64,000 bases of DNA from a virus (lineage: Duplodnaviria > Caudoviricetes): the IMG/VR virus record IMGVR_UViG_3300029288_000067, positions 160,067 to 224,066 of that record. The stretch is one strand, 5' to 3'. Positions within the stretch are counted from its first letter, which is position 1. Each line of letters starts with the position of its first letter. The notes under the pieces were generated by a model, which did no database searches, was not told the origin of the DNA, and saw only the letters and a program-made list of their open reading frames with translations. A program made the translations under genes and the position numbers. Of the stretch, positions 46,469-58,492 are shown piece by piece.

Positions 46469-48118
46469 ATGAACAAGAAGATTTTTGCAAACTCTACGGC
46501 TACCAAGAAAGTTCCTGTGGCTGATACCAAAAATTTGGCGGGTGGGAAAGCCTACAGCATGACCGATGAACATGCCCTTGCACAGATTGCTTCTACGGGC
46601 TGTTTCGGCAACACCTACTATGCCAACGCGGAAGATCAGCTTGAGAAGGTCCTTGAATTGGTAAAGAAGGTAGATCCGGTCTTTGTTGCAAAATTGGCTG
46701 TGTACTCTCGGAAAGAGGGCTACATGAAGGATATGCCTGCAGTTCTTGCCGCGTATCTTTCCACGGTGGATGCCGGATTGCTCCGTAAAATTTTCGCACA
46801 AGTTGTTGATAATGGGAAGATGTTGCGGAACTTCTTTCAGGCAATCAAATCGGGGAAGTTTGGTCGTACGTCTTTCGGACGGGCTCCAAGTTCCCTCATT
46901 CAGGGGTGGTTTGACTCCCACGATGAAGATTACATTTTCCGGAACAGTATTGGAAATGATCCTTCATTCTCGGATATCATCCACAACATCCACATCAAGC
47001 CAAAAAATAAGGCCCGGGAAGCCCTTTACGGTTACATCATGGGTAAGAAAGTAGTAACAAATGCGAAGGACATGGTTAAATCCAAGTCCGGCAAGTTTGT
47101 TACCGTACAAGAAAAAACCCTCCCGGGCATCGTTCGAGAGTATGAGGCATTCAAACGATTCAAGTTGGACGGGAAGAAGTGTGTTGGTCTCCCGGATGTT
47201 CCTTTCCAGATGTTGGATAGTCTCAACCTCTCCTCTGAAGATTGGAAGGAAGTTGCAAAAAATGCCCCGTGGCATATGTGCCGTATGAACTTGAACACCT
47301 TCATGCGTCATGGTGTATTTGCCGATTCTGAAATGGTGACTTTGATTGCAGATAAGTTGAAAAATGAGTATGCAATCAAGAAATCCAAGGTATTCCCATA
47401 CCAGTTGTTCTCTGCCTTCACGTATGCGGATGCGGCAATGCCACATGCTATTCGGGAAGCCTTGCAGGATGCTTTGGATGTTTCTCTCTACAATGTTCCG
47501 GAGATGGCGGGGAATATTGTGGTGTGTCCTGATGTTTCTGGAAGCATGAAATCTCCTATCACGCAGGCCCGGGGAGTTGCTTCTAAGATTCGCTGTGTGG
47601 ATGTTGCCGGTCTTGTGGCCTCTGCTATCCTCCGAAAGAATAAGAGTGCTCGGGTTATTCCTTTCGAGAATGATGTTGTGAATATTCCTCTGAATTCTCG
47701 GGACTCCGTAATGACCAATGCGGCAAAACTTGCTGCGGTTGGTGGTGGTGGAACTTGTTGCGCGGCCCCTCTTGTCAAGCTCATCAAAGAAGATGCAAAG
47801 GTTGATTTGATCGTGTATGTCTCCGATAATGAATCTTGGATCAACCCAGCAAGACACACGGGATATGGGTGGGGAAGAACATCGACAAGTGGAACCGCTG
47901 TAATGGATCTTTTCCAGAAGTTGAAGCACAAGAATCCGAATTTGAAGATGGTTTGTATTGATCTCACCCCGAATACAACCCTGCAGGCTCCTGACCGAAA
48001 GGACATCCTCAACATCGGGGGGTTCTCGGATACAGTGTTTGAATTGATGGATCTCTTCCATCAGGGTTTGTTGGATGCAAAGCATTGGGTGGATGTTGTT
48101 AAAAAAGTTCAACTTTAA
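46469..48118 (+). CDS. rsr: Ro60/TROVE-domain RNA-binding protein (Rsr-like)
   Basis: NLAGGKAY, TGCFGNTYY, GYMKDMP, MNLNTF.RHGVF, VFPYQL; vWA DVSGSM, GGGT, SDNESW, IGGFSD. Confidence 0.95.
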   Translation: MNKKIFANSTATKKVPVADTKNLAGGKAYSMTDEHALAQIASTGCFGNTYYANAEDQLEKVLELVKKVDPVFVAKLAVYSRKEGYMKDMPAVLAAYLSTVDAGLLRKIFAQVVDNGKMLRNFFQAIKSGKFGRTSFGRAPSSLIQGWFDSHDEDYIFRNSIGNDPSFSDIIHNIHIKPKNKAREALYGYIMGKKVVTNAKDMVKSKSGKFVTVQEKTLPGIVREYEAFKRFKLDGKKCVGLPDVPFQMLDSLNLSSEDWKEVAKNAPWHMCRMNLNTFMRHGVFADSEMVTLIADKLKNEYAIKKSKVFPYQLFSAFTYADAAMPHAIREALQDALDVSLYNVPEMAGNIVVCPDVSGSMKSPITQARGVASKIRCVDVAGLVASAILRKNKSARVIPFENDVVNIPLNSRDSVMTNAAKLAAVGGGGTCCAAPLVKLIKEDAKVDLIVYVSDNESWINPARHTGYGWGRTSTSGTAVMDLFQKLKHKNPNLKMVCIDLTPNTTLQAPDRKDILNIGGFSDTVFELMDLFHQGLLDAKHWVDVVKKVQL

Positions 48119-48121
48119 CGC

Positions 48122-48150
48122 TTGCATAAAACAAAATGTTGTGGTAAGGT
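48122..48150 (+). promoter_or_regulatory. sigma70-type promoter of the Y-RNA/tRNA operon
   Basis: TTGCAT-17 nt-TAAGGT with extended TGn; overlapped by a 14-bp inverted repeat (48138-48182). Confidence 0.65.
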
Positions 48151-48185
48151 AGAAACGTAAGGACAAAATACCTTACCACAACTAC

Positions 48186-48222
48186 AGCCCCCCTAAAGGG
48201 CTAGGTCTTTGAATAATTAAAT
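48186..48222 (+). promoter_or_regulatory. boxB/boxA-like antitermination site
   Basis: Hairpin AGCCC/GGGCT then GGTCTTTGAATAATTAAAT. Confidence 0.55.
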
Positions 48223-48229
48223 AGTTAAA

Positions 48230-48300
48230 AACTGGAACTACCGAGTGGTTTACATTTGTATCATCACAAAACCAAACAACTACTCAAAATTTGTCCAGTT
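48230..48300 (+). ncRNA. Y-RNA-like element 1 (minimal)
   Basis: AACTGGA/TCCAGTT outer stem, ACTAC loop, GAGTGGTT/AACTACTC inner stem, TACA. Confidence 0.75.
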
Positions 48301-48308
48301 CGATTTTA

Positions 48309-48455
48309 AGGTGGAAACTACGCAAGGGATTACATGGACATTAAATCCCCCGCTGTAAAAAGCATGTAGGTTCGAGTCCTACTCTCCCCACTCATGGGGA
48401 GATGGCGAAATTGGTAGACGCAGGAAAAAAATATCTCTTCATCTTTGATCCACCT
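48309..48455 (+). ncRNA. Y-RNA-like element 2 (permuted tRNA-Leu-like domain)
   Basis: AGGTGGA/TCCACCT stem; T-arm, then loop-closed acceptor TCTCCCCA-CTCA-TGGGGAGA, then D-arm. Confidence 0.85.
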
Positions 48456-48471
48456 GATTTTATAAGTTAGT

Positions 48472-48537
48472 GCTTGAAACTATCCGAGGGATTACATTTT
48501 TTGGTAAAATAACAATCTCTCACTATTTTGTTCAAGC
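48472..48537 (+). ncRNA. Y-RNA-like element 3 (minimal)
   Basis: GCTTGAA/TTCAAGC and GAGGGATT/AATCTCTC stems. Confidence 0.75.
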
Positions 48538-48540
48538 CAT

Positions 48541-48613
48541 AGGGTATTAGTTCAGCGGCTTAGAATCCTGGCTTGTCACGCCGGAGACACGGGTTCAAAT
48601 CCCGTATACCCTG
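48541..48613 (+). tRNA. tRNA-Asp(GTC)
   Basis: Cloverleaf, acceptor AGGGTAT/ATACCCT, loop TTGTCAC. Confidence 0.9.
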
Positions 48614-48614
48614 C

Positions 48615-48750
48615 TGTGAGGAAACTACCAAAAAGGGGTTACTTCAATGTTAATGACGTGATGGGGGTTCGAGTCCCCTCCTGGAGGTCTAACTTCTGGG
48701 TAGTTTAATGGTAAAACCCGAAAAATACCTCTTTATTTTTGTTCCTCATA
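48615..48750 (+). ncRNA. Y-RNA-like element 4 (permuted tRNA domain, GTT loop remnant)
   Basis: TGTGAGGAA/TTCCTCATA stem; T-arm before D-arm TAGTTTAATGGTAAAAC. Confidence 0.85.
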
Positions 48751-48753
48751 TAT

Positions 48754-48826
48754 GCCCTCATCGAATAATGGCTTAGTTCGCCAGCCTTTCAAGTTGGAAA
48801 TACCGGTTCAAATCCGGTTGGGGGTA
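48754..48826 (+). tRNA. tRNA-Glu(TTC)
   Basis: Cloverleaf, loop CTTTCAA. Confidence 0.9.
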
Positions 48827-48829
48827 CTG

Positions 48830-48975
48830 GATCGAGATACTGTCACAAGGTTTACAACGCGGATCTTTGGCCATGGGTTCGAGTCCCATTCCTCCCCCTG
48901 TAGGAGTTCTATGGGGAGGATAGCTCAGTTGGTAGAGCAAAAGAATAAAATAACTTTGTATTTTTGATCTCGATC
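48830..48975 (+). ncRNA. Y-RNA-like element 5 (permuted tRNA domain)
   Basis: GATCGAGA/TCTCGATC stem; T-arm, TCCTCCCC/GGGGAGGA, TAGCTCAGTTGGTAGAGC. Confidence 0.85.
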
Positions 48976-48983
48976 ATCTTTTT

Positions 48984-49094
48984 CTGTAAGAGACTCACAA
49001 AGGGATTACATTTTAAGTTCAATTCTTAATTCCCCCACTCACGGGGGAATAGCCTAAATGGTAAAGGCAAATCTCTTATTACTCGCTCTTACAG
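48984..49094 (+). ncRNA. Y-RNA-like element 6 (compact YrlA-like)
   Basis: CTGTAAGAG/CTCTTACAG stem; T-arm, TTCCCCC-ACTCAC-GGGGGAA, D-arm. Confidence 0.85.
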
Positions 49095-49098
49095 TCTT

Positions 49099-49181
49099 GC
49101 GGGAGTGGTGGAACGGCAGACACGCAAGTTCGAGAGACTTGTGGGCGAAAGCTCGTGAAGGTTCAACTCCTTTCTTCCGCA
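49099..49181 (+). tRNA. tRNA-Leu(GAG)
   Basis: Class II cloverleaf, loop TCGAGAG (C33 atypical), A73. Confidence 0.8.
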
Positions 49182-49222
49182 CTGTATGTGGACAAAGATC
49201 CGGACAAAATGACCGAGTAGTT

Positions 49223-49352
49223 TCAAGGCACTACAAAAGGGTTTACAGGATATGTCGCCTAAATGGTAAGGCAGCTTCTATGGAAATAGGAGAAGATTTT
49301 CGGTTCAACTCCGAATGTACCCCCAGACCTAACTCTTTTCATTTGGCCTTGA
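49223..49352 (+). ncRNA. Y-RNA-like element 7 (non-permuted tRNA-like cargo ending CCA)
   Basis: TCAAGGC/GCCTTGA stem enclosing D-arm, hairpin, T-arm and CCA at 49248-49325. Confidence 0.8.
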
Positions 49353-49355
49353 TTT

Positions 49356-49437
49356 GCCAGCATGGCGAAATTTGGTAGACGCAGCAGACTTAGGATCTGC
49401 CGGTTAATCCGTGGGGGTTCGATTCCCTCTGTTGGCA
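49356..49437 (+). tRNA. tRNA-Leu(TAG)
   Basis: Class II cloverleaf, loop CTTAGGA. Confidence 0.92.
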
Positions 49438-49441
49438 TTGT

Positions 49442-49594
49442 ATACGAGAAAACTACACAAGGGATTACATTACGCATAGGCTTGTTAAGCCTTGGCAACT
49501 TATGTGGGTTCGAGTCCCACCTGTGTTGAGAGTTATTAACACTGTGGCGGAATTGGTCTTGTTGCCATAATCTCTTAACCTTTGTTTCTCGTAT
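49442..49594 (+). ncRNA. Y-RNA-like element 8 (tRNA permuted in the D-loop)
   Basis: ATACGAGAAA/TTTCTCGTAT stem; AGGC-TTGTTAA-GCCT arm, T-arm, acceptor, TGGCGGAATTGGT. Confidence 0.8.
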
Positions 49595-49597
49595 CTT

Positions 49598-49669
49598 GGG
49601 GCTTTAGTTTAGGTGGGAAAACGTGGGCTTTGCAAGCCTAAATCCTCGGATCATACCCGGGAAGCTCCA
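49598..49669 (+). tRNA. tRNA-Ala(TGC)
   Basis: G3:U70 pair, loop TTTGCAA, atypical T-loop ATCATAC. Confidence 0.8.
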
Positions 49670-49706
49670 TTCTTATCTTTCTGCATATCAAATAAAGGAA
49701 ATATAC

Positions 49707-50399
49707 ATGCATTTTTACCACTTCGGGTATTATGATCATGACTCCCACTCTGACCGGGCTTTCATGCATGAGAAAAAATATACCAAGGCACAATTAGAGA
49801 GCTTTTTTACGAAAGCAACAATTTCTGTTTTCAATAAAAAGTGTGTTGAGGAATATTCGGACTTTATTAAGGAAACTATTCCGGATGCAGAAACCTTTCT
49901 TTCTTTTTGGGAAGAGCTTAAAAGTGCTCATGAGAAAGACACAGAAGAATATGTGTCAGATCTGTTTCATTTCATCCAAAAAAACCGGCACACTTTTAAA
50001 TACCGGGATAAAGATGCCCCGGATACGCCAAATGACGCATTTGACAAATATTTCCAGATCGAGCCCTATGACAAGGCTTACTATATGGAAAAAACCAAGC
50101 ACCTTGTATATATGTCAGAGCACGTCTCGGACATGATCTGTTTTATTTATGAAGTTCTGGAAAAAGAGTATGGGTTTATTCCCGTGAAGTTTGAGACGGA
50201 TTTTTATGTAAACAATATCAATTTTTACAGTTGCGGGTGGGATACACAGCCCTTTGATAAAAAATTTGCATCTCGGGTTCGGAGAGAAACAAATAAGCAA
50301 TTGAAAGATTTATCGGAGCATTTCAAAAAGATCTTGCCAAAAGAAACAAAGGGTGTTAAGATTTATCTTTGTCACAAGTATCCAAAAACAGCCTCTTAA
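49707..50399 (+). CDS. hypothetical protein inserted in the RNA operon
   Basis: Start moved to MHFYHF after an AAGGA RBS; the upstream ORF part overlaps tRNA-Ala. Confidence 0.7.
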   Translation: MHFYHFGYYDHDSHSDRAFMHEKKYTKAQLESFFTKATISVFNKKCVEEYSDFIKETIPDAETFLSFWEELKSAHEKDTEEYVSDLFHFIQKNRHTFKYRDKDAPDTPNDAFDKYFQIEPYDKAYYMEKTKHLVYMSEHVSDMICFIYEVLEKEYGFIPVKFETDFYVNNINFYSCGWDTQPFDKKFASRVRRETNKQLKDLSEHFKKILPKETKGVKIYLCHKYPKTAS

Positions 50400-50462
50400 C
50401 TCAGTTGGTAGAGTGTCTGCTTTACACGCAGATTGTCGTCGGTTCAATCCCGGCAGAGGCTA
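50390..50462 (+). tRNA. tRNA-Val(TAC)
   Basis: Cloverleaf, loop TTTACAC; overlaps the upstream stop codon. Confidence 0.9.
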
Positions 50463-50463
50463 C

Positions 50464-50584
50464 TGCAAGGAACTACGAAGGGGATTACAAGGATAAAATC
50501 TCTACCTCCGTGTAGTGGTGAGAGTGTTCGAAGCACTCAAAACAGTCGAAAGGCTGTTCAATCTCTTTCATTTTTGTCCTTGTA
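50464..50584 (+). ncRNA. Y-RNA-like element 9
   Basis: TGCAAGGA/TCCTTGTA stem, GAAGGGGATT/AATCTCTTTC; T-arm-like GAGTG-TTCGAAG-CACTC and a GAAA hairpin. Confidence 0.8.
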
Positions 50585-50587
50585 TTT

Positions 50588-50671
50588 GCCGGGATGGCGG
50601 AACTGGTATACGCGCAAGTCTCAAACACTTGTGGGAGCAATCTCTTGGGGGTTCGAGTCCCCCTCCCGGCA
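50588..50671 (+). tRNA. tRNA-Leu(CAA)
   Basis: Class II cloverleaf, loop CTCAAAC. Confidence 0.92.
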
Positions 50672-50698
50672 CTGTTTACATCTACAGGAGATACATAA

Positions 50699-51184
50699 AT
50701 GAGCAGTCTTTATTCCGACATTATTTGGGATAAATTGGGTCATAAGGATGTAGTAATCCCCAATCTTTCCGAAAAAGAAATTTTGGGTTACTTCAAAGAA
50801 TACCTGAGCAAAGCATCAAAAGAGGATATCGAGGCTTTGTTGGAAGACCTTGTTTGTAATTTCCAAATCACAAAGAATGTGGATTGGTATGATGGTCCTA
50901 TCCATGTTTGCAAAGTGGTAACGCATGAAGATCATGTAAGGCATCTTCCAGAAGATCCTGGATGGGTGGAAATGAAAGCACATATGATGGAGCTTTCTAT
51001 TCTGCCTCTTCTTATTCGATTGTTTTCAGCCTTTCCTCAGTATCTGGATGACATTGAAACAATTAAATTGTTTGTGGAGAAGATGAATGAAAAAAAGCCC
51101 TCTGAGGGGAAAAAAGATTCCGAAGTGTGTCCTACAAAAAAGGACGATCTCCTTCCACAACAATTACCCGAAGAAAAGGTATGA
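50699..51184 (+). CDS. hypothetical protein
   Basis: 161 aa, AGGAG RBS. Confidence 0.7.
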   Translation: MSSLYSDIIWDKLGHKDVVIPNLSEKEILGYFKEYLSKASKEDIEALLEDLVCNFQITKNVDWYDGPIHVCKVVTHEDHVRHLPEDPGWVEMKAHMMELSILPLLIRLFSAFPQYLDDIETIKLFVEKMNEKKPSEGKKDSEVCPTKKDDLLPQQLPEEKV

Positions 51185-51200
51185 TTTTTATTGGGCAATA

Positions 51201-51356
51201 ATGAGTATCCTGCCGGAATCCTTTACAATGAAAGAGGCAGCGAAGTTACTTTCATATTCACTTTCACATACCCGAAAGCTTATCTGTGAGTTGAAAGAGA
51301 TAGGTCAGGTCTTTTTATCCCCGGAGAATATATGGGTGAAAGAAAAAAAGGAATAG
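51201..51356 (+). CDS. small HTH protein
   Basis: FTMKEAAKLLSYSLSHTRKLI. Confidence 0.5.
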   Translation: MSILPESFTMKEAAKLLSYSLSHTRKLICELKEIGQVFLSPENIWVKEKKE

Positions 51357-51520
51357 GTAAAGCAAAACTTCTGAAAGCAATACAGAAGAAATGCTTGGAG
51401 TGTTGTTGTGGGGTTTCCCGGGAAGTTCGAGAGTGCTGCATTAAAGATTGCCCCCTGTGGGAATATCGAAATACTACGGAAGTAAAAAAGCAAGAGATTG
51501 TTGTTAAATCCTTACTTTGA
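51332..51520 (+). CDS. small Cys-rich phage protein
   Basis: KAIQKKCLECC...EVREC...CPLWEYR. Confidence 0.7.
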   Translation: MGERKKGIGKAKLLKAIQKKCLECCCGVSREVRECCIKDCPLWEYRNTTEVKKQEIVVKSLL

Positions 51521-51523
51521 GCC

Positions 51524-51829
51524 TTGAGAGTGAATTATTGTACAGATGCAACCAATTACACGGGCACAGGATCAATCCTTTGTGACCAATGTACAAACTC
51601 TTGTTACTTCTCCAGTGCGAGTGATAGACCTCAAAGTGCTTGTGGGTCTTATTATTCAAAACGAGGCAAAGAAGTTACTGTTTACAATACTTCCCAGAAT
51701 CCAACCCCATGTCTTCACCAAGAGATTATCAAAGAGATTGAGCACAAGCGTCGTAAATTTTGCAAAAAGTGCAACAATCAACGTTTTATCTATCGACAAG
51801 GTAAAATGATTCCTTGCCCCCGGTGCTAA
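51524..51829 (+). CDS. Cys-rich hypothetical protein
   Basis: CDQC, CKKC, CPRC. Confidence 0.5.
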   Translation: MRVNYCTDATNYTGTGSILCDQCTNSCYFSSASDRPQSACGSYYSKRGKEVTVYNTSQNPTPCLHQEIIKEIEHKRRKFCKKCNNQRFIYRQGKMIPCPRC

Positions 51830-51886
51830 TCTTTTAATTTGTATGTGAATACTCCTTCTGTAGGAAACACAAAAGGAGTACAAGTA

Positions 51887-52582
51887 ATGCAAAGTGATCT
51901 TTTGGAACTGTCTTTTGAAGAGTGTCTTGTGTGTTCTGATTTGCACTTCCCGGGGCACTCTGTTAAATGGGTTCGAGAGTTGATCAAGTATGGACGTATG
52001 CACAACGTCAAGAAAATAATCCACTCGGGAGATTTGTTCAACTTTGATGCTCTTTCCCGGTTTGAATTGAAGGATAAAAAATTTCCCCTCGACAAAGAAT
52101 TGGAAATTGGGAAAAAGGTTCTCTTGGAGTTGAGGCAGCATTTTAACGGTTTTTACACTGTGCGGGGAAACCACGATAAGAGACTGCCTCTTGCAATGAA
52201 TGATTCTATTGATTTTGCAACAGCCTTGAATCTATTGCTCGATAACAAGGTGGTTGCAACCAATAGAGACCACCTTTTCTTATATTCCGGGGGAGAGAAA
52301 TTCCGTATCTGTCACCCAGATAAATACTCCACGGTAAAGGGTAAGGTTGCGGGTGGTTTAGCACACGATCTACAAGAACATGTTATTATGGGCCACCCAC
52401 ATTATTTTTCAATGGCTTACAACAAAACTGGGAGATATATGGCAATTGAAATGCCTTGTATGTGTGATAAAATGGCATTTCAGTATAAGAATGAAGCAAC
52501 TACTGGTTGTCCCGAGTGGAATAATGGATTTTTGCACATCAAAAAAGGGAAAGTAAGAGTAATTACCGAATTGACTTTTTAA
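51887..52582 (+). CDS. calcineurin-like metallophosphoesterase
   Basis: SDLH, GDLFN, GNHD, GHPH motifs. Confidence 0.9.
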   Translation: MQSDLLELSFEECLVCSDLHFPGHSVKWVRELIKYGRMHNVKKIIHSGDLFNFDALSRFELKDKKFPLDKELEIGKKVLLELRQHFNGFYTVRGNHDKRLPLAMNDSIDFATALNLLLDNKVVATNRDHLFLYSGGEKFRICHPDKYSTVKGKVAGGLAHDLQEHVIMGHPHYFSMAYNKTGRYMAIEMPCMCDKMAFQYKNEATTGCPEWNNGFLHIKKGKVRVITELTF

Positions 52583-52639
52583 GCCAATCTGTTTTAGAAT
52601 ACCTGCTGTAGAGCAGGTATTTTTCTTTTAGGAGAAAGT

Positions 52640-52861
52640 ATGCAAGAATATCCCCCGTTAAAAGGGAAAATGGAATTTATTGAAATAAGTCCCGAAGAGA
52701 CTATTGAGAAGAAGCCGGTTGAATATAAACAAGATGATTATTATTTGGAGAAGGAGATTAAGCCGGAAGACCTCACATGTTTTTATTGTCTCAACAAAGA
52801 TTCCTGCCCGTGCTCGGGAGATCTGTACAATACCGATGGTGATTGTTTGTGGATCAAGTAA
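52640..52861 (+). CDS. small Cys protein
   Basis: CFYC...CPC..DLYNTDGDCL; AGGAG RBS. Confidence 0.65.
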   Translation: MQEYPPLKGKMEFIEISPEETIEKKPVEYKQDDYYLEKEIKPEDLTCFYCLNKDSCPCSGDLYNTDGDCLWIK

Positions 52862-53355
52862 TCACAAGTGCAAAGACCTCCGTAAATTCCAAGAAATTAC
52901 CAGCTATTTTTAAAAAAATAGAATGTGTGTGGACTCACGGTGCAATTAATGTGGATTACGGGGGCGGAAAGTATGACATTGCCACAGATTACTTACAAGA
53001 GAAAAATATACTTAATTTGATCTATGACCCCTTCAATCGTAGTGCCGAATATAATGCTATAGTCCTTACCACACTAAGATATTACCCAGCAGACACGGCA
53101 ACAATTTCAAATGTGCTCAATGTTATTCGAGAAAAAGAGATCCGAAAAAGGGTAACTCAGCATGTCTACGATTTGTTGAAACCCGAAGGAAAAGCTTTCT
53201 TTTCTTTTTATGCGGGGGACCGTTCGGGGGTGGGAAAAGAAACCAGTAAAGGTTGGCAAGAAAACAGAATTGCCAAGAGCTATATCGTGGAAATAGAAGA
53301 AGTTTTTCCCGTGGTTTTCATCACCAATTCCATTGTTTTTGCAGAAAAACGTTGA
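52843..53355 (+). CDS. SAM-dependent methyltransferase-like protein
   Basis: VDYGGG, YDPFN, SNVLNVI, LKPEG. Confidence 0.8.
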   Translation: MFVDQVITSAKTSVNSKKLPAIFKKIECVWTHGAINVDYGGGKYDIATDYLQEKNILNLIYDPFNRSAEYNAIVLTTLRYYPADTATISNVLNVIREKEIRKRVTQHVYDLLKPEGKAFFSFYAGDRSGVGKETSKGWQENRIAKSYIVEIEEVFPVVFITNSIVFAEKR

Positions 53356-53380
53356 CTTTTTTTAAGACCCCTGATAATGT
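53352..53380 (+). promoter_or_regulatory. sigma70-type promoter
   Basis: TTGACT-17 nt-TAATGT with extended TGn. Confidence 0.6.
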
Positions 53381-53423
53381 GTAACAGTTCGTGCTAAATT
53401 TAATACATAAGGAGATTTTTTCT

Positions 53424-53792
53424 ATGACAGAAGAAATCAAGGCCCCAGAATTCAAAACCCTTTCCCCCAGTTTTTTCAAGAGAACCACCAAAAGTCAAAT
53501 TTCACATATCGTGAAATATTCGGGTGTTGCAGAAAAGATTGAGGAATACAAAAGGGCTCTGAAGGATGGGCTCTGCAAGCTTGAAGTTTTAACTCGCAAG
53601 CAGTTTGCAGATTTGACAAAGTTCGGTGTGGAAGTTCCCTTGGAATTCCGCCCGCCCATGACCGACAAGGTTAAGAATGCCCTTTTGTCGAAACGGCATG
53701 TGGATCGTCTGTGGATGGAATTTGGTATCAAAGCTCCTGATGCAATGCTTCCTGTGAAGAAGCCCCGTGTGAAGAAAACTCCTGCGGCATAA
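53424..53792 (+). CDS. basic hypothetical protein
   Basis: Start trimmed to MTEEIK after AAGGAG; followed by a terminator-like hairpin at about 53804-53841. Confidence 0.7.
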   Translation: MTEEIKAPEFKTLSPSFFKRTTKSQISHIVKYSGVAEKIEEYKRALKDGLCKLEVLTRKQFADLTKFGVEVPLEFRPPMTDKVKNALLSKRHVDRLWMEFGIKAPDAMLPVKKPRVKKTPAA

Positions 53793-53855
53793 TAACTGCC
53801 CTCTTGGGGGAGTCTCTTTTCGGAGGCTCCCCCAAATTTTTTAAAAGAGAAATAC

Positions 53856-54785
53856 ATGAAAAAATTTATTTTCCTGCAAGCACATCTGAAAGAAATACAG
53901 AATATGTTTTTGGCAAAAGGGGATAATATCCGGATGTCTGCATTATTTAATGGCATCAAGGGTGTGGGGAAATACTCTTTCATAAAAGACACAATTAAAA
54001 AATGGAATTGCTCTTCGCAGGAGGATTGTAATTGCCCGGTCTGCGAGAAAATAGATAAGAACAGTACAATGGATATTTGTGAATTCAATTCCTCGGAATC
54101 AATACAGGACTTTCGAAAAAGCTTGCAACAATTTCAGAATACTCCCCCGATGGAATTGAGGCATAAGTATTTGATTTTGCGGAATATGGACTATTACAGC
54201 AAAGAGATTATTGATTTGTTGTTGAAGACAATTGAAGAAAAAACAAATTTCCATATTTTTGCTACTGCTGTGGATATCGATAGAATTCGCCCCGCAATGT
54301 TATCCCGTTTTAAAAGATATTTTGTGAGCAATTATTCCCGGGAGGATCTGAAGAGTATTATCTCACATGATTTTAAATTGGCATATTTGTCAAATATGGA
54401 AAATAAGTATCCGTTTTCATCTATCTTTGAGATGGATGTATTTTTCCGATTTGCTTTCTCAAATTATTACAGCCTTCTTTTTGAAAAGGCAAAAACACCC
54501 ACAGATATTATCATGTCTGTAAATTCTTTTATGTCCCCGATAAATGCCTTACCAATCTGTGAAAAGCTGCCAACAATTGGGGCCTTTATCGAGTACTGCA
54601 TGATACAGGTCCGGGAAGAATCCTCGGAGAGATACCAACAGTATTTGCGAAAAGTTCTTTCTCGGTATTCCCCCTCGCTCTTGTCCAATTTGAATAATCC
54701 GGAATATTATGCACAAATCAATTTGGACAATCAGATAATGTCCTTGTTTCTCAGCTTGTTTATTTTAAAATCTATTGTGGAATAA
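53856..54785 (+). CDS. clamp-loader subunit, delta-prime (HolB)-like
   Basis: GIKGVGK, C..C.C..C Zn motif, LLKTIEE, MLSRF. Confidence 0.75.
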   Translation: MKKFIFLQAHLKEIQNMFLAKGDNIRMSALFNGIKGVGKYSFIKDTIKKWNCSSQEDCNCPVCEKIDKNSTMDICEFNSSESIQDFRKSLQQFQNTPPMELRHKYLILRNMDYYSKEIIDLLLKTIEEKTNFHIFATAVDIDRIRPAMLSRFKRYFVSNYSREDLKSIISHDFKLAYLSNMENKYPFSSIFEMDVFFRFAFSNYYSLLFEKAKTPTDIIMSVNSFMSPINALPICEKLPTIGAFIEYCMIQVREESSERYQQYLRKVLSRYSPSLLSNLNNPEYYAQINLDNQIMSLFLSLFILKSIVE

Positions 54786-54787
54786 AT

Positions 54788-55777
54788 ATGCAAGACATTG
54801 ATTTTCTGTTGTCCGAAAAGCCACAAATAAAGCGGCTGATGACATACGTACATTCTTTGGGGGTTCTGAAAGGACCCCTCGTGAAGAAGTACCGGAGCAT
54901 TTTGCAAAACAAAGAGTATGAGATTCGGGAAATTTCTGAGGAAAATATTCGGGACCTGCAGGCGGGATCCTTGTTCGGTAGTGTGGCATTTTTAATTAAT
55001 TTTCAAACGTACTCCGAAGAATTTTTGAAAAAAATGATGGACACATACGCCGATGGGGATAATAAATGCCTTATCTGTATGTCAGCCGAAGAATTTAAAA
55101 AGGTGAAAGAAAATTCAAAAGAGTTTGCAAAAGAACTGAATCCCATTTTCGAGGTTGAAAAAGATAAAGAGAATTTCAAGAGTGTTTGTCAATATGTCCT
55201 ACAAAAAGAGTTGGGCTGTGCCGAAGGAGACTTTAATAACTACCCCGTTTTTAAAGTAGCAATAGAGGATCTGTATTTCAACCACACAGAGAATATTTTA
55301 GACTTTTTCAGTAATTTTCATTTTATTTCTAATATCTGTATTCAACAAACAGGAGAAAAGATTGATTTTGATCTTTCCTTGTTTCGAAAAATTCTTCCGG
55401 AAATAAGGAAAAAGGAATACTACAAGGCACATATTTTGTTGGGTACCTTCATAAAGTATCCCAACAAAGATACCCTTGCACCTCTTTTCTCTTTTGTCTC
55501 CGCAGTGGTGAAAGATGCAACAATGATTCGGTATGCTCTGGATACAATCTATCGAACAACTTTTGAATTGTTGCAATTACATCCCTCTTTCGAGGGCGCA
55601 AAACATAACTTCAGTGAGTTCAAAGTAAAACAACTTTCTGGGGTTGCAAATATTCCTCTTGTGAATACTTTTCAGTTCATGGTAAGATTCTCAGAGATGG
55701 AAGTGGTTTTCAATAAGAGAAACTTCTTGTTGAATTTTCACAATTTTTTGATGGATCTTTTAAAGGTAATTAGATAA
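54788..55777 (+). CDS. clamp-loader subunit, delta (HolA)-like (tentative)
   Basis: Size, GSLFG motif and position next to the holB-like gene. Confidence 0.45.
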   Translation: MQDIDFLLSEKPQIKRLMTYVHSLGVLKGPLVKKYRSILQNKEYEIREISEENIRDLQAGSLFGSVAFLINFQTYSEEFLKKMMDTYADGDNKCLICMSAEEFKKVKENSKEFAKELNPIFEVEKDKENFKSVCQYVLQKELGCAEGDFNNYPVFKVAIEDLYFNHTENILDFFSNFHFISNICIQQTGEKIDFDLSLFRKILPEIRKKEYYKAHILLGTFIKYPNKDTLAPLFSFVSAVVKDATMIRYALDTIYRTTFELLQLHPSFEGAKHNFSEFKVKQLSGVANIPLVNTFQFMVRFSEMEVVFNKRNFLLNFHNFLMDLLKVIR

Positions 55778-56263
55778 GTGCCTGCCTTCGATAAAAACAC
55801 TTTTGCATACTTACTTACAAAATGTATGCAAAGTCATAAGAGAGAAGACTTTGACACCATTTATGCCCAACTTGTTAAAAAGCTGGGATTAGGTGGGTGT
55901 GGGTTTCATTCGGATAAAATGCAAGAGCCTTGTTACCCCTGTCTTCGTGAATTGATTGATACCTTGGGCCTTCTCGTTTTTCCATTCATTGGACCAAATG
56001 TTGATGAATACTTGGTGGTGAATTCCCTTCTTTTCTTGGAGACTCCAAAGCAAGATGTAATTGTTCCCGATGCTTTGTATCTCTTGCCCGAGGGGGGTTA
56101 TTGGGGGAGAATCTCACAAGTCTTTTCATCCTCCGATCTGCTGGTTATTGAATATGCTCCAGAGGTTTTTATTAGTTTAAAGAAATCTGTTCTCTATAAA
56201 TTTTTCAAGGAAGACGTGGGCTACTACGGTATTTGCATAGGGTCCGTAAAAAAGAAAAAATAA
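55778..56263 (+). CDS. hypothetical protein
   Basis: 161-aa ORF abutting the upstream stop. Confidence 0.6.
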   Translation: MPAFDKNTFAYLLTKCMQSHKREDFDTIYAQLVKKLGLGGCGFHSDKMQEPCYPCLRELIDTLGLLVFPFIGPNVDEYLVVNSLLFLETPKQDVIVPDALYLLPEGGYWGRISQVFSSSDLLVIEYAPEVFISLKKSVLYKFFKEDVGYYGICIGSVKKKK

Positions 56264-56267
56264 ATTG

Positions 56268-56296
56268 TTGACGCAACCGAAGAGACGTGTTAGAGT
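56268..56296 (+). promoter_or_regulatory. sigma70-type promoter of tRNA operon 2
   Basis: TTGACG-17 nt-TAGAGT with extended TGn. Confidence 0.7.
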
Positions 56297-56319
56297 TGAA
56301 GACAGGAGCTAACAAGAAA

Positions 56320-56421
56320 ATGAAGAAGTTTAATAAACATAGTTTTATTAGTTTTTCCGGAATCAAATCCGGAAATGCTTCCTCACACTCTTGTTGGTAT
56401 AATGGAGCGAACCGCATCTAG
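56320..56421 (+). CDS. putative leader peptide (33 aa)
   Basis: Manual translation MKKFNKHSFISFSGIKSGNASSHSCWYNGANRI; AGGAG at 56304-56308. Confidence 0.6.
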   Translation: MKKFNKHSFISFSGIKSGNASSHSCWYNGANRI

Positions 56422-56498
56422 TTTCTCCTAAGCCCTCGAAGAGTAGGATTAACAGGAAGCGGTAGCCGAAAGGCATAATCGCTCCATTTTGTGTTTTA
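56401..56498 (+). promoter_or_regulatory. attenuator-like multi-stem structure
   Basis: AATGGAGCGA/TCGCTCCATT closing stem, ACCGC/GCGGT, GCC-GAAA-GGC, then a T-rich tract. Confidence 0.6.
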
Positions 56499-56500
56499 CT

Positions 56501-56518
56501 GATATTTGAAAACTAAAT
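56501..56518 (+). promoter_or_regulatory. boxA-like site
   Basis: GATATTTGAAAACTAAAT directly before the first tRNA. Confidence 0.5.
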
Positions 56519-56531
56519 CTTGTCAAGTCAC

Positions 56532-56603
56532 AGGTCGCTGGTGAAATTGGAATCATTGCTGTCTCCAAAATAGTAGTTTCGGGTTCGAGTCCCGGGCGGC
56601 CTG
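56532..56603 (+). tRNA. tRNA-Trp(CCA)
   Basis: Cloverleaf, loop CTCCAAA. Confidence 0.88.
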
Positions 56604-56605
56604 CT

Positions 56606-56690
56606 GGTATGTGTATCCAAGTGGTTAAAGGGGGTAGATTGTGGATCTACTGGCTTCGTGCCTTCGCGGGTTCAAATCCCGTCACATACC
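56606..56690 (+). tRNA. tRNA-His(GTG) with long variable arm
   Basis: G-1:C73, loop TTGTGGA, V-arm GGC-TTCGT-GCC. Confidence 0.85.
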
Positions 56691-56696
56691 CCGTAT

Positions 56697-56783
56697 GGAG
56701 AAGTGGCAGAGCCCGGTTTATTGCATCACGGTGCTAACGTGAAGTGGGGAAACTCACCACAGGTTCAAATCCTGTCTTCTCCG
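56697..56783 (+). tRNA. tRNA-Ser(GCT)
   Basis: Class II, loop GTGCTAA, G73. Confidence 0.9.
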
Positions 56784-56859
56784 CTGGTCTGAATCCAAAA
56801 TTATAGGGGGATGCTATGTCACAGCTAAACGCAATGTAAAAAAGAGACGTGGGTTTGTC

Positions 56860-57150
56860 TTGTTGGGGGAAACAAAAGAAGGTTATAAAGTGGTGGGAAA
56901 TGTTTTTCTGTTGTGTGAATCCCGGGGACTTCCACTGGAATTCATAATTGACTCTTTAAAAGATGAAGGTTTTGTGATATCATGGGTAGACTTCTACGAG
57001 GATTCCTTAAATGCTCTGTGGAGTCCTGAAACAACCTTATCCAAGATTCAAAATGCCCTTAATGAGACATACGGAAAAGAATATAGCAATGATGTAATAC
57101 TTCGGTTACGGGCTTACATTGGTTCAAAGCACACTGGAGAGGTCGCATAG
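56860..57150 (+). CDS. small protein resembling an alanyl-tRNA synthetase helical segment
   Basis: VFLLCESRGLPLEFI...EGFVISWVDF resembles AlaRS AFxLYDTYGFPxD...GLxVDxxGF; start uncertain. Confidence 0.6.
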   Translation: MLGETKEGYKVVGNVFLLCESRGLPLEFIIDSLKDEGFVISWVDFYEDSLNALWSPETTLSKIQNALNETYGKEYSNDVILRLRAYIGSKHTGEVA

Positions 57151-57220
57151 TGGTCTAGTGCGCTCGCTTGGAAAGCGAGTAGGCGTAACAGCCTCGGGGG
57201 TTCGACTCCCCCTCTCTCCG
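57136..57220 (+). tRNA. tRNA-Ser(GGA)
   Basis: Class II, loop TTGGAAA. Confidence 0.92.
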
Positions 57221-57284
57221 CTGAAATGTAATAAAAGAAAGGATAAATCAGTGTATGGATTCCGATGGTTTTTGTGGTTCATGA

Positions 57285-57357
57285 GCCGGGAAAGCTAATC
57301 TGGTGAAAGCGTTGGACTGAAAATCCAAAGAGGTCAGATCGTAACTGACTCCCGGCA
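57285..57357 (+). tRNA. tRNA-Phe(GAA)
   Basis: Loop CTGAAAA; atypical A8 and T-loop ATCGTAA. Confidence 0.8.
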
Positions 57358-57364
57358 TTGTTTT

Positions 57365-57455
57365 GGGTAGGCTGCTAAGTTTGGTGCTTTAGCACGAGTC
57401 TGTAAAACTCGGCCCTAACGGGATAAGATAATAGGTTCGATTCCTATCCTACCCA
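57365..57455 (+). tRNA. tRNA-Tyr(GTA)
   Basis: Loop CTGTAAA, long variable region, atypical D-arm. Confidence 0.8.
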
Positions 57456-57468
57456 CTGAATGTTGAAT

Positions 57469-57553
57469 GCGTAGGTGCCCGAGTGGTCGAAGGGAGGGGT
57501 CTGCAAAACCCCCGGGATAACACCCCACGTTGGTTCAAATCCATCCCTACGCT
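57469..57553 (+). tRNA. tRNA-Cys(GCA) with long variable arm
   Basis: Loop CTGCAAA, U73, V-arm GGG-ATAACA-CCC. Confidence 0.85.
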
Positions 57554-57562
57554 TAGATATTT

Positions 57563-57634
57563 GGGAACGTAGCTCAATGGTTGAGCAACTGGCTGTTAAC
57601 CAGTAGGTTGCAGGTTCAAGCCCTGCCGTTCCCG
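57563..57634 (+). tRNA. tRNA-Asn(GTT)
   Basis: Cloverleaf, loop CTGTTAA. Confidence 0.92.
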
Positions 57635-57644
57635 CTGTTGCAAT

Positions 57645-57791
57645 ACTCACAGGAGTTATATACAGATAGACCGAAATTTGAATGGGGGTAGGTTTTTGCA
57701 AGAACTCAAACCCAAAGGTCTGAAACCGGGACACTCGGATAAATAGACCGTTAATTGTAGGGAACATTGTGAAATCCTGTATTCTGTGGGT
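57645..57791 (+). ncRNA. unclassified structured RNA candidate
   Basis: ACTCACAGGA/TTCTGTGGGT and ATACAG/CTGTAT closing stems; internal AGACC/GGTCT and CCGGG/CTCGG. Confidence 0.45.
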
Positions 57792-57802
57792 TCAATTTGT
57801 TT

Positions 57803-57883
57803 GCCACATTAGCCTAGCGGTAAGGCATCTGGCTGTAAACCAGACGGGGAAACCTATCGGTGGTTCAAATCCATCATGTGGCA
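57803..57883 (+). tRNA. tRNA-Tyr(GTA), second copy
   Basis: Loop CTGTAAA, A73, short V-arm GG-GAAA-CC. Confidence 0.85.
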
Positions 57884-57892
57884 TTGGAAAAC

Positions 57893-57963
57893 GGGTTCAT
57901 AGCTCAACGGTAGAGCATCTGACTTTTAATCAGTCGATGATGGTTCAATTCCATCTGGACCCA
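57893..57963 (+). tRNA. tRNA-Lys(TTT)
   Basis: Cloverleaf, loop CTTTTAA. Confidence 0.92.
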
Positions 57964-57984
57964 TTGTTTTGAAAGGTGTGACAT

Positions 57985-58230
57985 ATGAAAAAATATTCTG
58001 TCCGGTTCGAACATCCTTATGTGGGTAACAAAGGTGAATGTGCTTTTGTCTGTGTTCTTGCAGAAAATGAGCGGGATGCAATTGCACAATCTAAGGTTTT
58101 GTTGAAAAAGGAAATAAAAGAATCCAATTGTAAGGAATACCCCGTAAAAGATTCCTATTTTCATGCCTATCCGGATAGAAATGGGGTTGTCGGGGAAAAG
58201 AAAGTGTATGATGGAGATGAGCGATTGTAG
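57985..58230 (+). CDS. hypothetical protein
   Basis: 81 aa between tRNAs, AAGGTG RBS. Confidence 0.6.
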   Translation: MKKYSVRFEHPYVGNKGECAFVCVLAENERDAIAQSKVLLKKEIKESNCKEYPVKDSYFHAYPDRNGVVGEKKVYDGDERL

Positions 58231-58235
58231 TGTTT

Positions 58236-58308
58236 CGGGCGATTGTACAGTTGGTAGTACGCCACTCTGATATGGTGGAGGTCGGCGGTTCGATTCCGCC
58301 TCGCCCGA
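58236..58308 (+). tRNA. tRNA-Ile(GAT)
   Basis: Cloverleaf, loop CTGATAT. Confidence 0.9.
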
Positions 58309-58390
58309 TTGTACGTTCAGATTTTCAGAATGTTCGCGGATGTTGAACAAGAGGAAAATCTGAACGCAGGCTCTACGAAAGGGTTTCTAA

Positions 58391-58476
58391 GGAAGGTTGG
58401 CAGAAAGGCTATTGCACCAGTCTTGAAAACTGGAAATCCTGCAAAGGGTTTGTGGGTTCGAGTCCCACACCTTCCT
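58391..58476 (+). tRNA. tRNA-Ser(TGA)
   Basis: Class II, loop CTTGAAA, U73. Confidence 0.88.
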
Positions 58477-58492
58477 CTGAGAAAGGATTGAT

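Follow-up and report, generated by a model that had tools for sequence, protein, structure and literature searches.

The final 64 kb of the 224-kb IMG/VR virus record IMGVR_UViG_3300029288_000067 (the window, that is, the whole stretch of 64,000 nucleotides analysed here), part of the genome of a giant phage, carry a gene for a Ro60/Rsr orthologue and, downstream of it, an array of Y-RNA elements interleaved with tRNA genes. We suggest that the seventh of these elements (element 7, positions 49223-49352) is a Y RNA and partner of the phage Ro60/Rsr protein, and that it holds a tRNA mimic of natural arm order without an anticodon loop which stays tethered to Ro. We put the probability of this reading at about 0.72. 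Element 7 belongs to a family of related scaffolds, has a tRNA-like secondary structure and is linked to the Ro gene, and the same design recurs in another phage. Its parts are as follows.

49223-49229, plus strand: 5′ strand of the terminal stem, TCAAGGC, which forms 7/7 pairs with 49346-49352
49230-49243, plus strand: 5′ internal loop ACTAC and 5′ strand of the inner helix (AAAAGGGTT), placed by alignment with the scaffold model; in YrlA RNAs the site of the GNCGAA-type Ro-binding motif
49244-49247, plus strand: TACA, the conserved YUAY junction after the inner helix, found in 9/9 elements
49248-49254, plus strand: 5′ strand of the acceptor-like stem, GGATATG, from the ARAGORN cloverleaf
49257-49272, plus strand: D arm GCCT-AAATGGTA-AGGC, with A14, A15, G18G19 and A21
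49275-49292, plus strand: substitute for the anticodon arm, CTTCTAT-GGAA-ATAGGAG, a 7-bp stem (7/7 pairs) with a GGAA tetraloop
49299-49315, plus strand: T arm TTCGG-TTCAACT-CCGAA, with G53:C61, U54U55C56 and A58
49316-49330, plus strand: 3′ strand of the acceptor-like stem, TGTACCC (49316-49322), then the linker CCAGACCT, which has an out-of-register CCA and a CCT
49331-49352, plus strand: 3′ strand of the inner helix AACTCTTTT, U-rich loop CATTTG and 3′ strand of the terminal stem, GCCTTGA

An earlier note on this DNA, made from the letters alone, had described a Y scaffold around an unpermuted tRNA-like domain. Every arm that it named (acceptor, D arm, hairpin and T arm) is present at the coordinates listed above and the cloverleaf of ARAGORN agrees. 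Both components are also recovered by models, the scaffold with 24.7 bits (our model R2, see below) and the enclosed domain with 30.8 bits (Rfam tRNA). The scaffold is indeed joined at the acceptor end, opposite to YrlA, and the arms follow in the order D arm, hairpin, T arm.

The Y-RNA scaffold and the Ro60-linked array

We described the scaffold by covariance models, R1 and then R2, which were seeded with minimal elements only and from which element 7 was excluded. The seed consisted of elements 3 and 9 of the window, four elements from a related Logan contig (L003) and two elements from a distant contig (L002). MAFFT put the helices of the minimal elements out of register; the seed was built from two sequences in the same register and then from model-guided alignments. 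An earlier genome-wide descriptor, made up of a GG..TAC motif and two complementary helices, gave 173 matches, while shuffled genomes gave about 100. As this descriptor was not strict enough to prove anything, the covariance models took its place.

With the filters switched off, R2 finds in the region 47500-51500 exactly nine elements with scores from 20.3 to 56.8 bits; the best match that is not an element has 9.4 bits. Element 7 is matched from 49225 to 49350 with an E-value of about 1e-4. Across the nine paralogues the helices of the scaffold are 95% paired, compared to 44-59% in slid controls, 11 of the 14 pairs have changed on both sides and none of 500 shuffles was as good. From the R2 score and this covariation across the paralogues we conclude that the flanks of element 7 are real scaffold. 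Common to each element are the terminal stem, whose sequence varies from element to element, the 5′ loop ACUAC, the junction UACA, an inner helix in which (A/G)AGGG(A/U)U pairs with A(A/U)CUCUU, a variable module and a U-rich 3′ loop which ends in G. In element 7 the inner helix is formed by 9 base pairs between 49235-49243 and 49331-49339, and the YUAY sequence is present as UUAC (49243-49246).

The array and the genes to which we refer in the following are these.

46469-48118, plus strand: Ro60/Rsr orthologue of 549 amino acids (Pfam vWA_Ro60 1.3e-15, TROVE 6.3e-9), presumed protein partner of the RNA array
48232-50584, plus strand: nine Y-RNA scaffold elements (model R2) and seven interleaved tRNAs; element 7 is 49223-49352
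49099-49182, plus strand: tRNA-Leu(GAG), the upstream neighbour, which ends 40 nucleotides before element 7
49355-49438, plus strand: tRNA-Leu(UAG), the downstream neighbour, which starts 2 nucleotides after element 7
90281-90658, 101187-101633 and 69243-69776 of the phage genome (G000), all minus strand: an open reading frame of the PolyA_pol/CCA-adding family and two of the RNA_ligase family

The Ro60 open reading frame is intact and has about 8000 full-length homologues at roughly 50% identity; the relatives from phages are 57-62% identical. The alignment shows no variation at D355, S357 and S359, the residues of the DxSxS motif of the metal ion-dependent adhesion site (MIDAS). About 110 bases separate the Ro60 gene from the array, which lies 3′ of it on the same strand, and element 7 begins within the array 1.1 kb downstream of the gene. 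Elements 2, 4, 5, 6 and 8 have the published YrlA architecture of T arm, closed acceptor hairpin and D arm. An insert that is not tRNA-like is found in element 9, and elements 1 and 3 are minimal. Element 7 is the sole member of the array with the order D arm, hairpin, T arm. The YrlA model of Rfam (RF02553) matches, below its threshold, elements 5 (37 bits), 4 (27 bits), 8 (20 bits) and 2 (16 bits); a classical YrlA beside Ro in L002 obtains 57 bits. Since an intact Ro60/Rsr gene precedes the array in the same orientation and since the neighbours show these weak YrlA matches, we regard element 7 as a Y-RNA paralogue.

In other Ro loci R2 has 108 matches (55 viral loci) and 263 matches (80 bacterial loci), and 371/371 are on the strand of the Ro gene. 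In most cases these matches, from the viral loci L004-L059 and the bacterial loci L060-L139, follow one another immediately downstream of Ro, and a locus can have as many as 12 of them (L036). It seems common for many Y-RNA paralogues to form one tandem array, well beyond the about two per species of the published descriptions.

The spacing within the array is tight. Elements adjoin tRNA ends at 1-3 nucleotides, and among elements 4-8 the only sizeable gap is the 40-nucleotide spacer between tRNA-Leu(GAG) and element 7 (49183-49222), the other junctions having 0-8 nucleotides. The CTG after the discriminator of tRNA-Asp (48541-48614) runs directly into the start of element 4. Elements 2 (48310-48454) and 6 (48984-49094) have closed acceptor hairpins of 7-8 bp with near-identical loops, ACUCA and ACUCAC, after a C-rich 3′ strand; by analogy to the YrlA of Mycobacterium smegmatis they may be substrates of RNase P. 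On the plus strand between 48100 and 49700 we found neither a sigma-70-like promoter nor a terminator, a weak negative as the promoter type of the host may differ.

The phage genome has 30 tRNA genes which cover all 20 amino acids, tRNA-Phe(GAA) and tRNA-Ser(GGA) among them, and 19 of the tRNAs are in the window. Outside the window the phage further encodes a protein of the PolyA_pol/CCA-adding family (76.9 bits in a frame of 472 amino acids) and the two RNA_ligase-family open reading frames (PF09414). RtcB was not found in the phage. A nucleotidyltransferase of the CCA-adding type together with RNA-ligase-family open reading frames, without RtcB, fits a role in the maintenance of tRNA or RNA.

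The tRNA-like domain and its acceptor end

ARAGORN calls positions 49248-49324 as 'tRNA-?(Ser|Phe)(ggaa)'. The tRNA model of Rfam (RF00005) reaches its 30.8 bits with E = 8e-4, just above the gathering score, which is 29. By comparison, 43-74 bits are obtained by the 19 genuine tRNAs in the window. The D stem (4 bp), the hairpin (7 bp with the GGAA loop) and the T stem (5 bp) are free of mismatches and are formed in every prediction. The nucleotides of the tRNA core and elbow are kept, namely U8, A14, G18G19, A21, G53, U54U55C56, A58, C61 and a Levitt-type pair A15:U48. Positions 15 and 48 covary within the array, with G15:C48 in element 5 and A15:U48 in elements 2, 4, 6 and 7. There are 2 nucleotides between the D and the anticodon stem and 6 nucleotides in the variable loop. 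The D arm is nearly identical to that of element 6, GCCT-AAATGGTA-AAGGC. A paralogue of a phage tRNA was considered and rejected: the best of the 30 tRNAs, a tRNA-Ser of 86 nucleotides, has 55 positions identical to the 78-nucleotide domain.

The anticodon loop of seven nucleotides with U33 and a purine at position 37 is absent. The hairpin at 49275-49292 can be read as a 5-bp stem with the 8-nucleotide loop AUGGAAAU or as a 7-bp stem with the 4-nucleotide loop GGAA, and it is the latter that appears in the minimum free energy (MFE) and centroid structures. The term anticodon-less tRNA mimic, which the earlier note had offered as one possibility, therefore fits the element, given that no D, hairpin or T stem has a flaw and that the nucleotides of the core and elbow, A15:U48 included, are in place. 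The GNRA loop to which it had drawn attention is, however, not a conserved property of such hairpins, for the corresponding loop is CAAU in L002 and GGCA in the bacterial locus L060.

The acceptor end is less regular. Strands 49248-49254 and 49316-49322 form 6/7 pairs, with one A·C mismatch, one U·G and one G·U, and the ends of the domain run on into the scaffold rather than being free. The sequence CCA (49323-49325) follows directly after the seven-position stem without a discriminator base; with canonical numbering this gives C73-CAG at the 3′ end. That element 7 is the only tRNA-like domain of the window ending in CCA holds insofar as none of the 19 window tRNAs (48541-58477) encodes CCA, and the three bases past the discriminator are CTG or TTG in 16 of these 19, but the CCA of element 7 lacks the discriminator and is out of register. 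It is probably there by chance. Because it is out of register and is absent from the counterpart in L002 (see below), we consider the CCA weak evidence for a released cargo.

Recurrence in other phages and alternative explanations

A counterpart is found in a distant, GC-rich phage (L002, IMG/VR contig 3300027917_000034) whose Ro protein is 41% identical. Its element at L002:4175-4299 scores 36.6 bits with the scaffold model and encloses a cloverleaf of natural order, which is called 'tRNA-???(aa)' by ARAGORN and has 45.9 bits with the Rfam tRNA model. The acceptor has one mismatch, a 5-bp stem capped by CAAU replaces the anticodon loop (the loop can be read as 6 nucleotides or as a tetraloop) and there is no CCA. 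In the MFE structure the acceptor helix gains three pairs (CAU/AUG) toward the scaffold. As none of the stems is alike in sequence, we take this element to be an independent instance of the design of element 7. Both elements are flanked by two tRNA genes of one amino acid (His in L002, Leu in the window), within a tRNA/Y array linked to Ro; the element of L002 lies upstream of Ro whereas element 7 lies downstream. On either side of Ro, the region L002:2957-9109 has 8 Y scaffold elements intermingled with its 35 tRNA calls. The mixed tRNA/Y array is thus an architecture common to very distant phages.

Further elements have the T arm last. At L024:10230-10369 and at L032/L033:10228-10364 the Y scaffold encloses a tRNA-Ile-like domain with an intact 7-nucleotide anticodon loop (AAU or GAU). 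The acceptor 5′ strand called by ARAGORN may here pair instead with an upstream strand just after UACA, and one compensatory change (TCCAC/GTGGA versus TCCAA/TTGGA) supports this pairing. Such a pairing would amount to a third permutation, with the break between the T arm and the 3′ strand of the acceptor. At L002:3660-3770 a D-like, an anticodon-like and a T hairpin are closed directly by the scaffold, and L060:8806-8914, with the loop GGCA, is a bacterial case. With a strict descriptor the YrlA order is found in 137 of the 177 scaffold elements that hold a T arm and the T arm is last in a handful only. Furthermore, none of the 263 bacterial scaffold matches encloses a tRNA that ARAGORN recognises. 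The design of natural order is thus rare in these 135 further Ro loci, but recurrent. A check of the flanks around ARAGORN tRNA calls had a null rate of 25/4338 with spurious pairings across elements, and a looser version gave mostly false cases; we therefore kept only cases confirmed by the covariance model. In addition, a free-standing phage tRNA with perfect stems and an 8-nucleotide anticodon loop (ARAGORN 'gcaa') is encoded by another Ro-encoding phage (L015 and L016:1084-1160). It is possible that this tRNA is a four-base decoder.

The closest relative of the locus is the syntenic contig L003, whose Ro is 62% identical. It has eight elements, among them clear homologues of elements 4, 5 and 8, and no tRNA-Leu(UAG). 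The homologue of element 5 (L003:3852-4179) carries an extra insert of about 200 nucleotides in the loop of the acceptor hairpin, and no Rfam family matches this insert at E up to 1. Neither exact nor degenerate DNA patterns of element 7 had a match in the viral and metagenome contig collections, and the same holds for patterns of the conserved element 8. No array was found downstream of Ro in the contigs encoding the relatives P0003, P0005 and P0006, and the INPHARED phages gave matches at the level of tRNAs only.

Several observations weigh against a Y RNA with a tethered tRNA mimic. After its tRNA-Leu(GAG), L003 has a minimal element (4273-4350) without a tRNA-like insert, and the domain of element 7 is one sequence and so has no covariation support of its own. 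Given the minimal element of L003 and the empty pattern scans, the domain was probably acquired, or formed by rearrangement, in recent times. Even at E up to 10 element 7 is not matched by the YrlA model of Rfam. The Ro-binding motif GNCGAAN0-1G is degenerate, ACUACAAAAGGG; at the motif position element 9 has CGAAGG and elements 1 and 3 have CCGAG, and the relative L003 keeps AUGYCGAAG. The fold of the whole element is modestly better than that of shuffles (z = -2.0). Folding, which the earlier note had named as a check of the cloverleaf, returns the D, hairpin and T stems in every prediction but gives the acceptor pairs a probability of about 0.02. In the MFE structure AGG (49247-49249) pairs with CCT (49328-49330) at a probability of about 0.75 instead, so that the acceptor stem is thermodynamically disfavoured, and forcing it costs +2.2 kcal/mol. 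The energy models leave out the tertiary contacts of tRNA, so that the acceptor pairing may form nevertheless.

Element 7 could alternatively be a cleavable cargo, as the earlier note had also considered with RNase P and RNase Z in mind. RNase P would cut on the 5′ side of G49248, the 3′ end might also be cut or trimmed near 49323-49325, and the product would be either a released anticodon-less RNA of tRNA shape or a nicked Y RNA in two pieces whose acceptor-like end could be extended by the phage CCA-adding enzyme. For such a course there is a precedent: the YrlA of M. smegmatis, whose acceptor stem has 7 bp, is an RNase P substrate in vitro, and in vivo it undergoes cleavage and is CCA-tailed (Chen et al. 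2014, PMC4201824). The acceptor of element 7 likewise has seven positions, begins with G1:C72, is stacked on a canonical T arm and is followed immediately by CCA, the phage has the open reading frame of the PolyA_pol/CCA-adding family, and the short distances between elements and tRNA ends suggest that tRNA-processing enzymes probably mature the whole array. We nevertheless consider cleavage unlikely. The acceptor with its mismatch and its two G·U pairs is hardly populated in the predicted ensemble, the CCA is out of register, and the counterpart in L002 has no CCA and extends its acceptor helix by CAU/AUG, hence it offers no free single-stranded tail. Moreover, RNase P cleavage was undetected for the YrlA of S. 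Typhimurium and for Yrn1 (PMC4201824), and for most YrlA acceptor stems the prediction is that they make poor substrates of RNase P (bioRxiv 10.1101/312249).

The domain might also be a functionless remnant, that is, a decaying tRNA gene or a duplicated part of an element like element 6 that became trapped in a minimal Y element. The minimal element of L003 at the matching position, the marginal tRNA score, the imperfect acceptor, the unusual spacing (2 nucleotides between the D and anticodon stems, 6 in the variable loop) and the D arm shared with element 6, which suggests a local rearrangement, would all suit such an origin. Yet decay is unlikely to spare exactly three mismatch-free stems and the elbow nucleotides, and the exchange of the anticodon loop for a clean extended helix with a stable tetraloop does not look like random damage. 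The same design has arisen independently in L002, and with at most 55 identical positions the domain is remote from all 30 phage tRNAs. We therefore rate a pseudogene as improbable. Still less credible is a decoding tRNA with an 8-nucleotide anticodon loop (A-U-GGAA-A-U) that would be excised from the scaffold and would read the four-base codon UUCC, or UUC or UCC with a +1 shift. In the ARAGORN reading a U precedes and an A follows the four-base anticodon as in known frameshift-suppressor tRNAs, and the tRNA at L015:1084-1160 demonstrates that free-standing tRNAs with 8-nucleotide loops exist in other Ro-encoding phages. In element 7, however, the loop bases pair with each other (A32-U38, U33-A37) to give the 7-bp stem and the GNRA loop, the weak acceptor sits inside a Y scaffold without a discriminator-CCA, the phage already has tRNA-Phe(GAA) and tRNA-Ser(GGA), and the loop of the counterpart in L002 cannot decode.

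Proposed mechanism and comparison with known systems

We prefer the tethered tRNA mimic and suggest that it could function as follows. The array would be transcribed together with its tRNAs as a single precursor, downstream of the Ro gene. Enzymes of tRNA processing would then mature it, which we infer from the way the elements adjoin the tRNA ends; an RNase P cut at the 5′ end of tRNA-Leu(UAG) would define the 3′ end of element 7. Ro would bind the scaffold, that is, the terminal stem, the asymmetric loop and the GGG-rich inner helix which ends in UACA. The RNA of element 7 would remain in one piece on Ro, and the module, held by its acceptor end and presumably L-shaped in three dimensions, would offer its tRNA elbow and its arm without anticodon to a partner that binds tRNA. 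This partner might be an exoribonuclease such as PNPase, by analogy to Yrn1, or a tRNA-recognising enzyme, by analogy to YrlA. In either case Ro would be tethered or gated within the tRNA maintenance equipment of the phage.

A bolder idea, which we offer as quite doubtful, is that Ro-encoding phages carry sets of Y-RNA adaptors which display one tRNA shape from different attachment points. The acceptor-anchored form without anticodon (element 7 and L002:4175) would then be a dedicated device. It might be processed by RNase P and the phage CCA-adding enzyme to a free or nicked tRNA-shaped RNA, or it might act, while tethered to Ro, as a decoy for or a sensor of host factors that hold on to the body of a tRNA, with tRNA-targeting defence nucleases as one example. 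Nucleases that cut the anticodon loop could not cleave element 7 because it has no such loop.

YrlA and Yrn1 were thought to be independently derived from tRNAs. The YrlA RNAs (RF02553), known from Salmonella, Mycobacterium and mycobacteriophages, resemble element 7 in several respects. They are encoded beside Ro60 on the same strand, they have tRNA-like D and T arms with the elbow nucleotides and the 15:48 covariation, and a purine-rich 5′ motif is followed by YUAY. For YrlA a GNCGAAN0-1G motif near the 5′ end and then a conserved YUAY have been described (PMC4201824). YrlA is, however, circularly permuted, with T arm, closed acceptor hairpin and D arm in this order and with the Ro stem at the position of the anticodon stem. 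Judged by this strict definition element 7 is not a YrlA: its arms stand in natural order, the anticodon position is taken by a hairpin, and the closure is at the acceptor end.

Compared to canonical tRNAs and to frameshift-suppressor tRNAs with 8-nucleotide loops, element 7 shares the cloverleaf order, the consensus of the D and T loops and a tRNA score just over the threshold. It differs from them in that it has no 7-nucleotide anticodon loop, that the acceptor is weak and without discriminator-CCA, and that its ends are paired into the scaffold.

The topology of element 7 is not without precedent, as the Y RNA Yrn1 of Deinococcus radiodurans has the same order of D arm, 'anticodon arm' with a 6-nucleotide loop, and T arm, and its T and D arms are oriented differently from those of YrlA relative to the 5′ end of the RNA (Chen et al. 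2014, PMC4201824). Yrn1 is bound by Rsr and tethers Rsr to PNPase (PMC4201824; bioRxiv 10.1101/312249). Orthologues outside Deinococcus were not known in 2014 (PMC4201824). As in element 7, the 5′ and 3′ ends of Yrn1 form the Ro-binding stem at the position of the acceptor stem, and three stem-loops follow, the first D-like, the second a short-looped 'anticodon arm' and the last a T arm; in terms of secondary structure element 7 thus has the Yrn1 arrangement. In contrast to element 7, Yrn1 has neither a full D arm nor a variable region, and its middle hairpin has a 5-bp stem with a 6-nucleotide loop. Element 7 possesses a complete D arm, a 6-nucleotide variable region, an acceptor-like stem of its own with seven positions and a 7-bp hairpin with tetraloop. 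Also the Ro-binding helix is different, being similar to metazoan Y RNAs in Yrn1 and of the YrlA-type scaffold in element 7, where the comparison with Yrn1 is by description only.

The permuted YrlA anchored at the anticodon end and the natural-order Yrn1 anchored at the acceptor end were known before. As a single sequence element 7 does not by itself found a new field. Here an acceptor-anchored module of natural order and permuted modules stand side by side on one Ro-binding scaffold in a single phage array. Scaffold and tRNA-shaped module therefore appear to be freely combinable. With its full D arm, variable region and T arm, element 7 is a much clearer tRNA mimic than Yrn1, and it would thus lend itself to two questions: which face of the tRNA shape is recognised by the partner of a Ro–Y RNA complex, and whether RNase P and CCA-adding enzymes process forms that are anchored at the acceptor.

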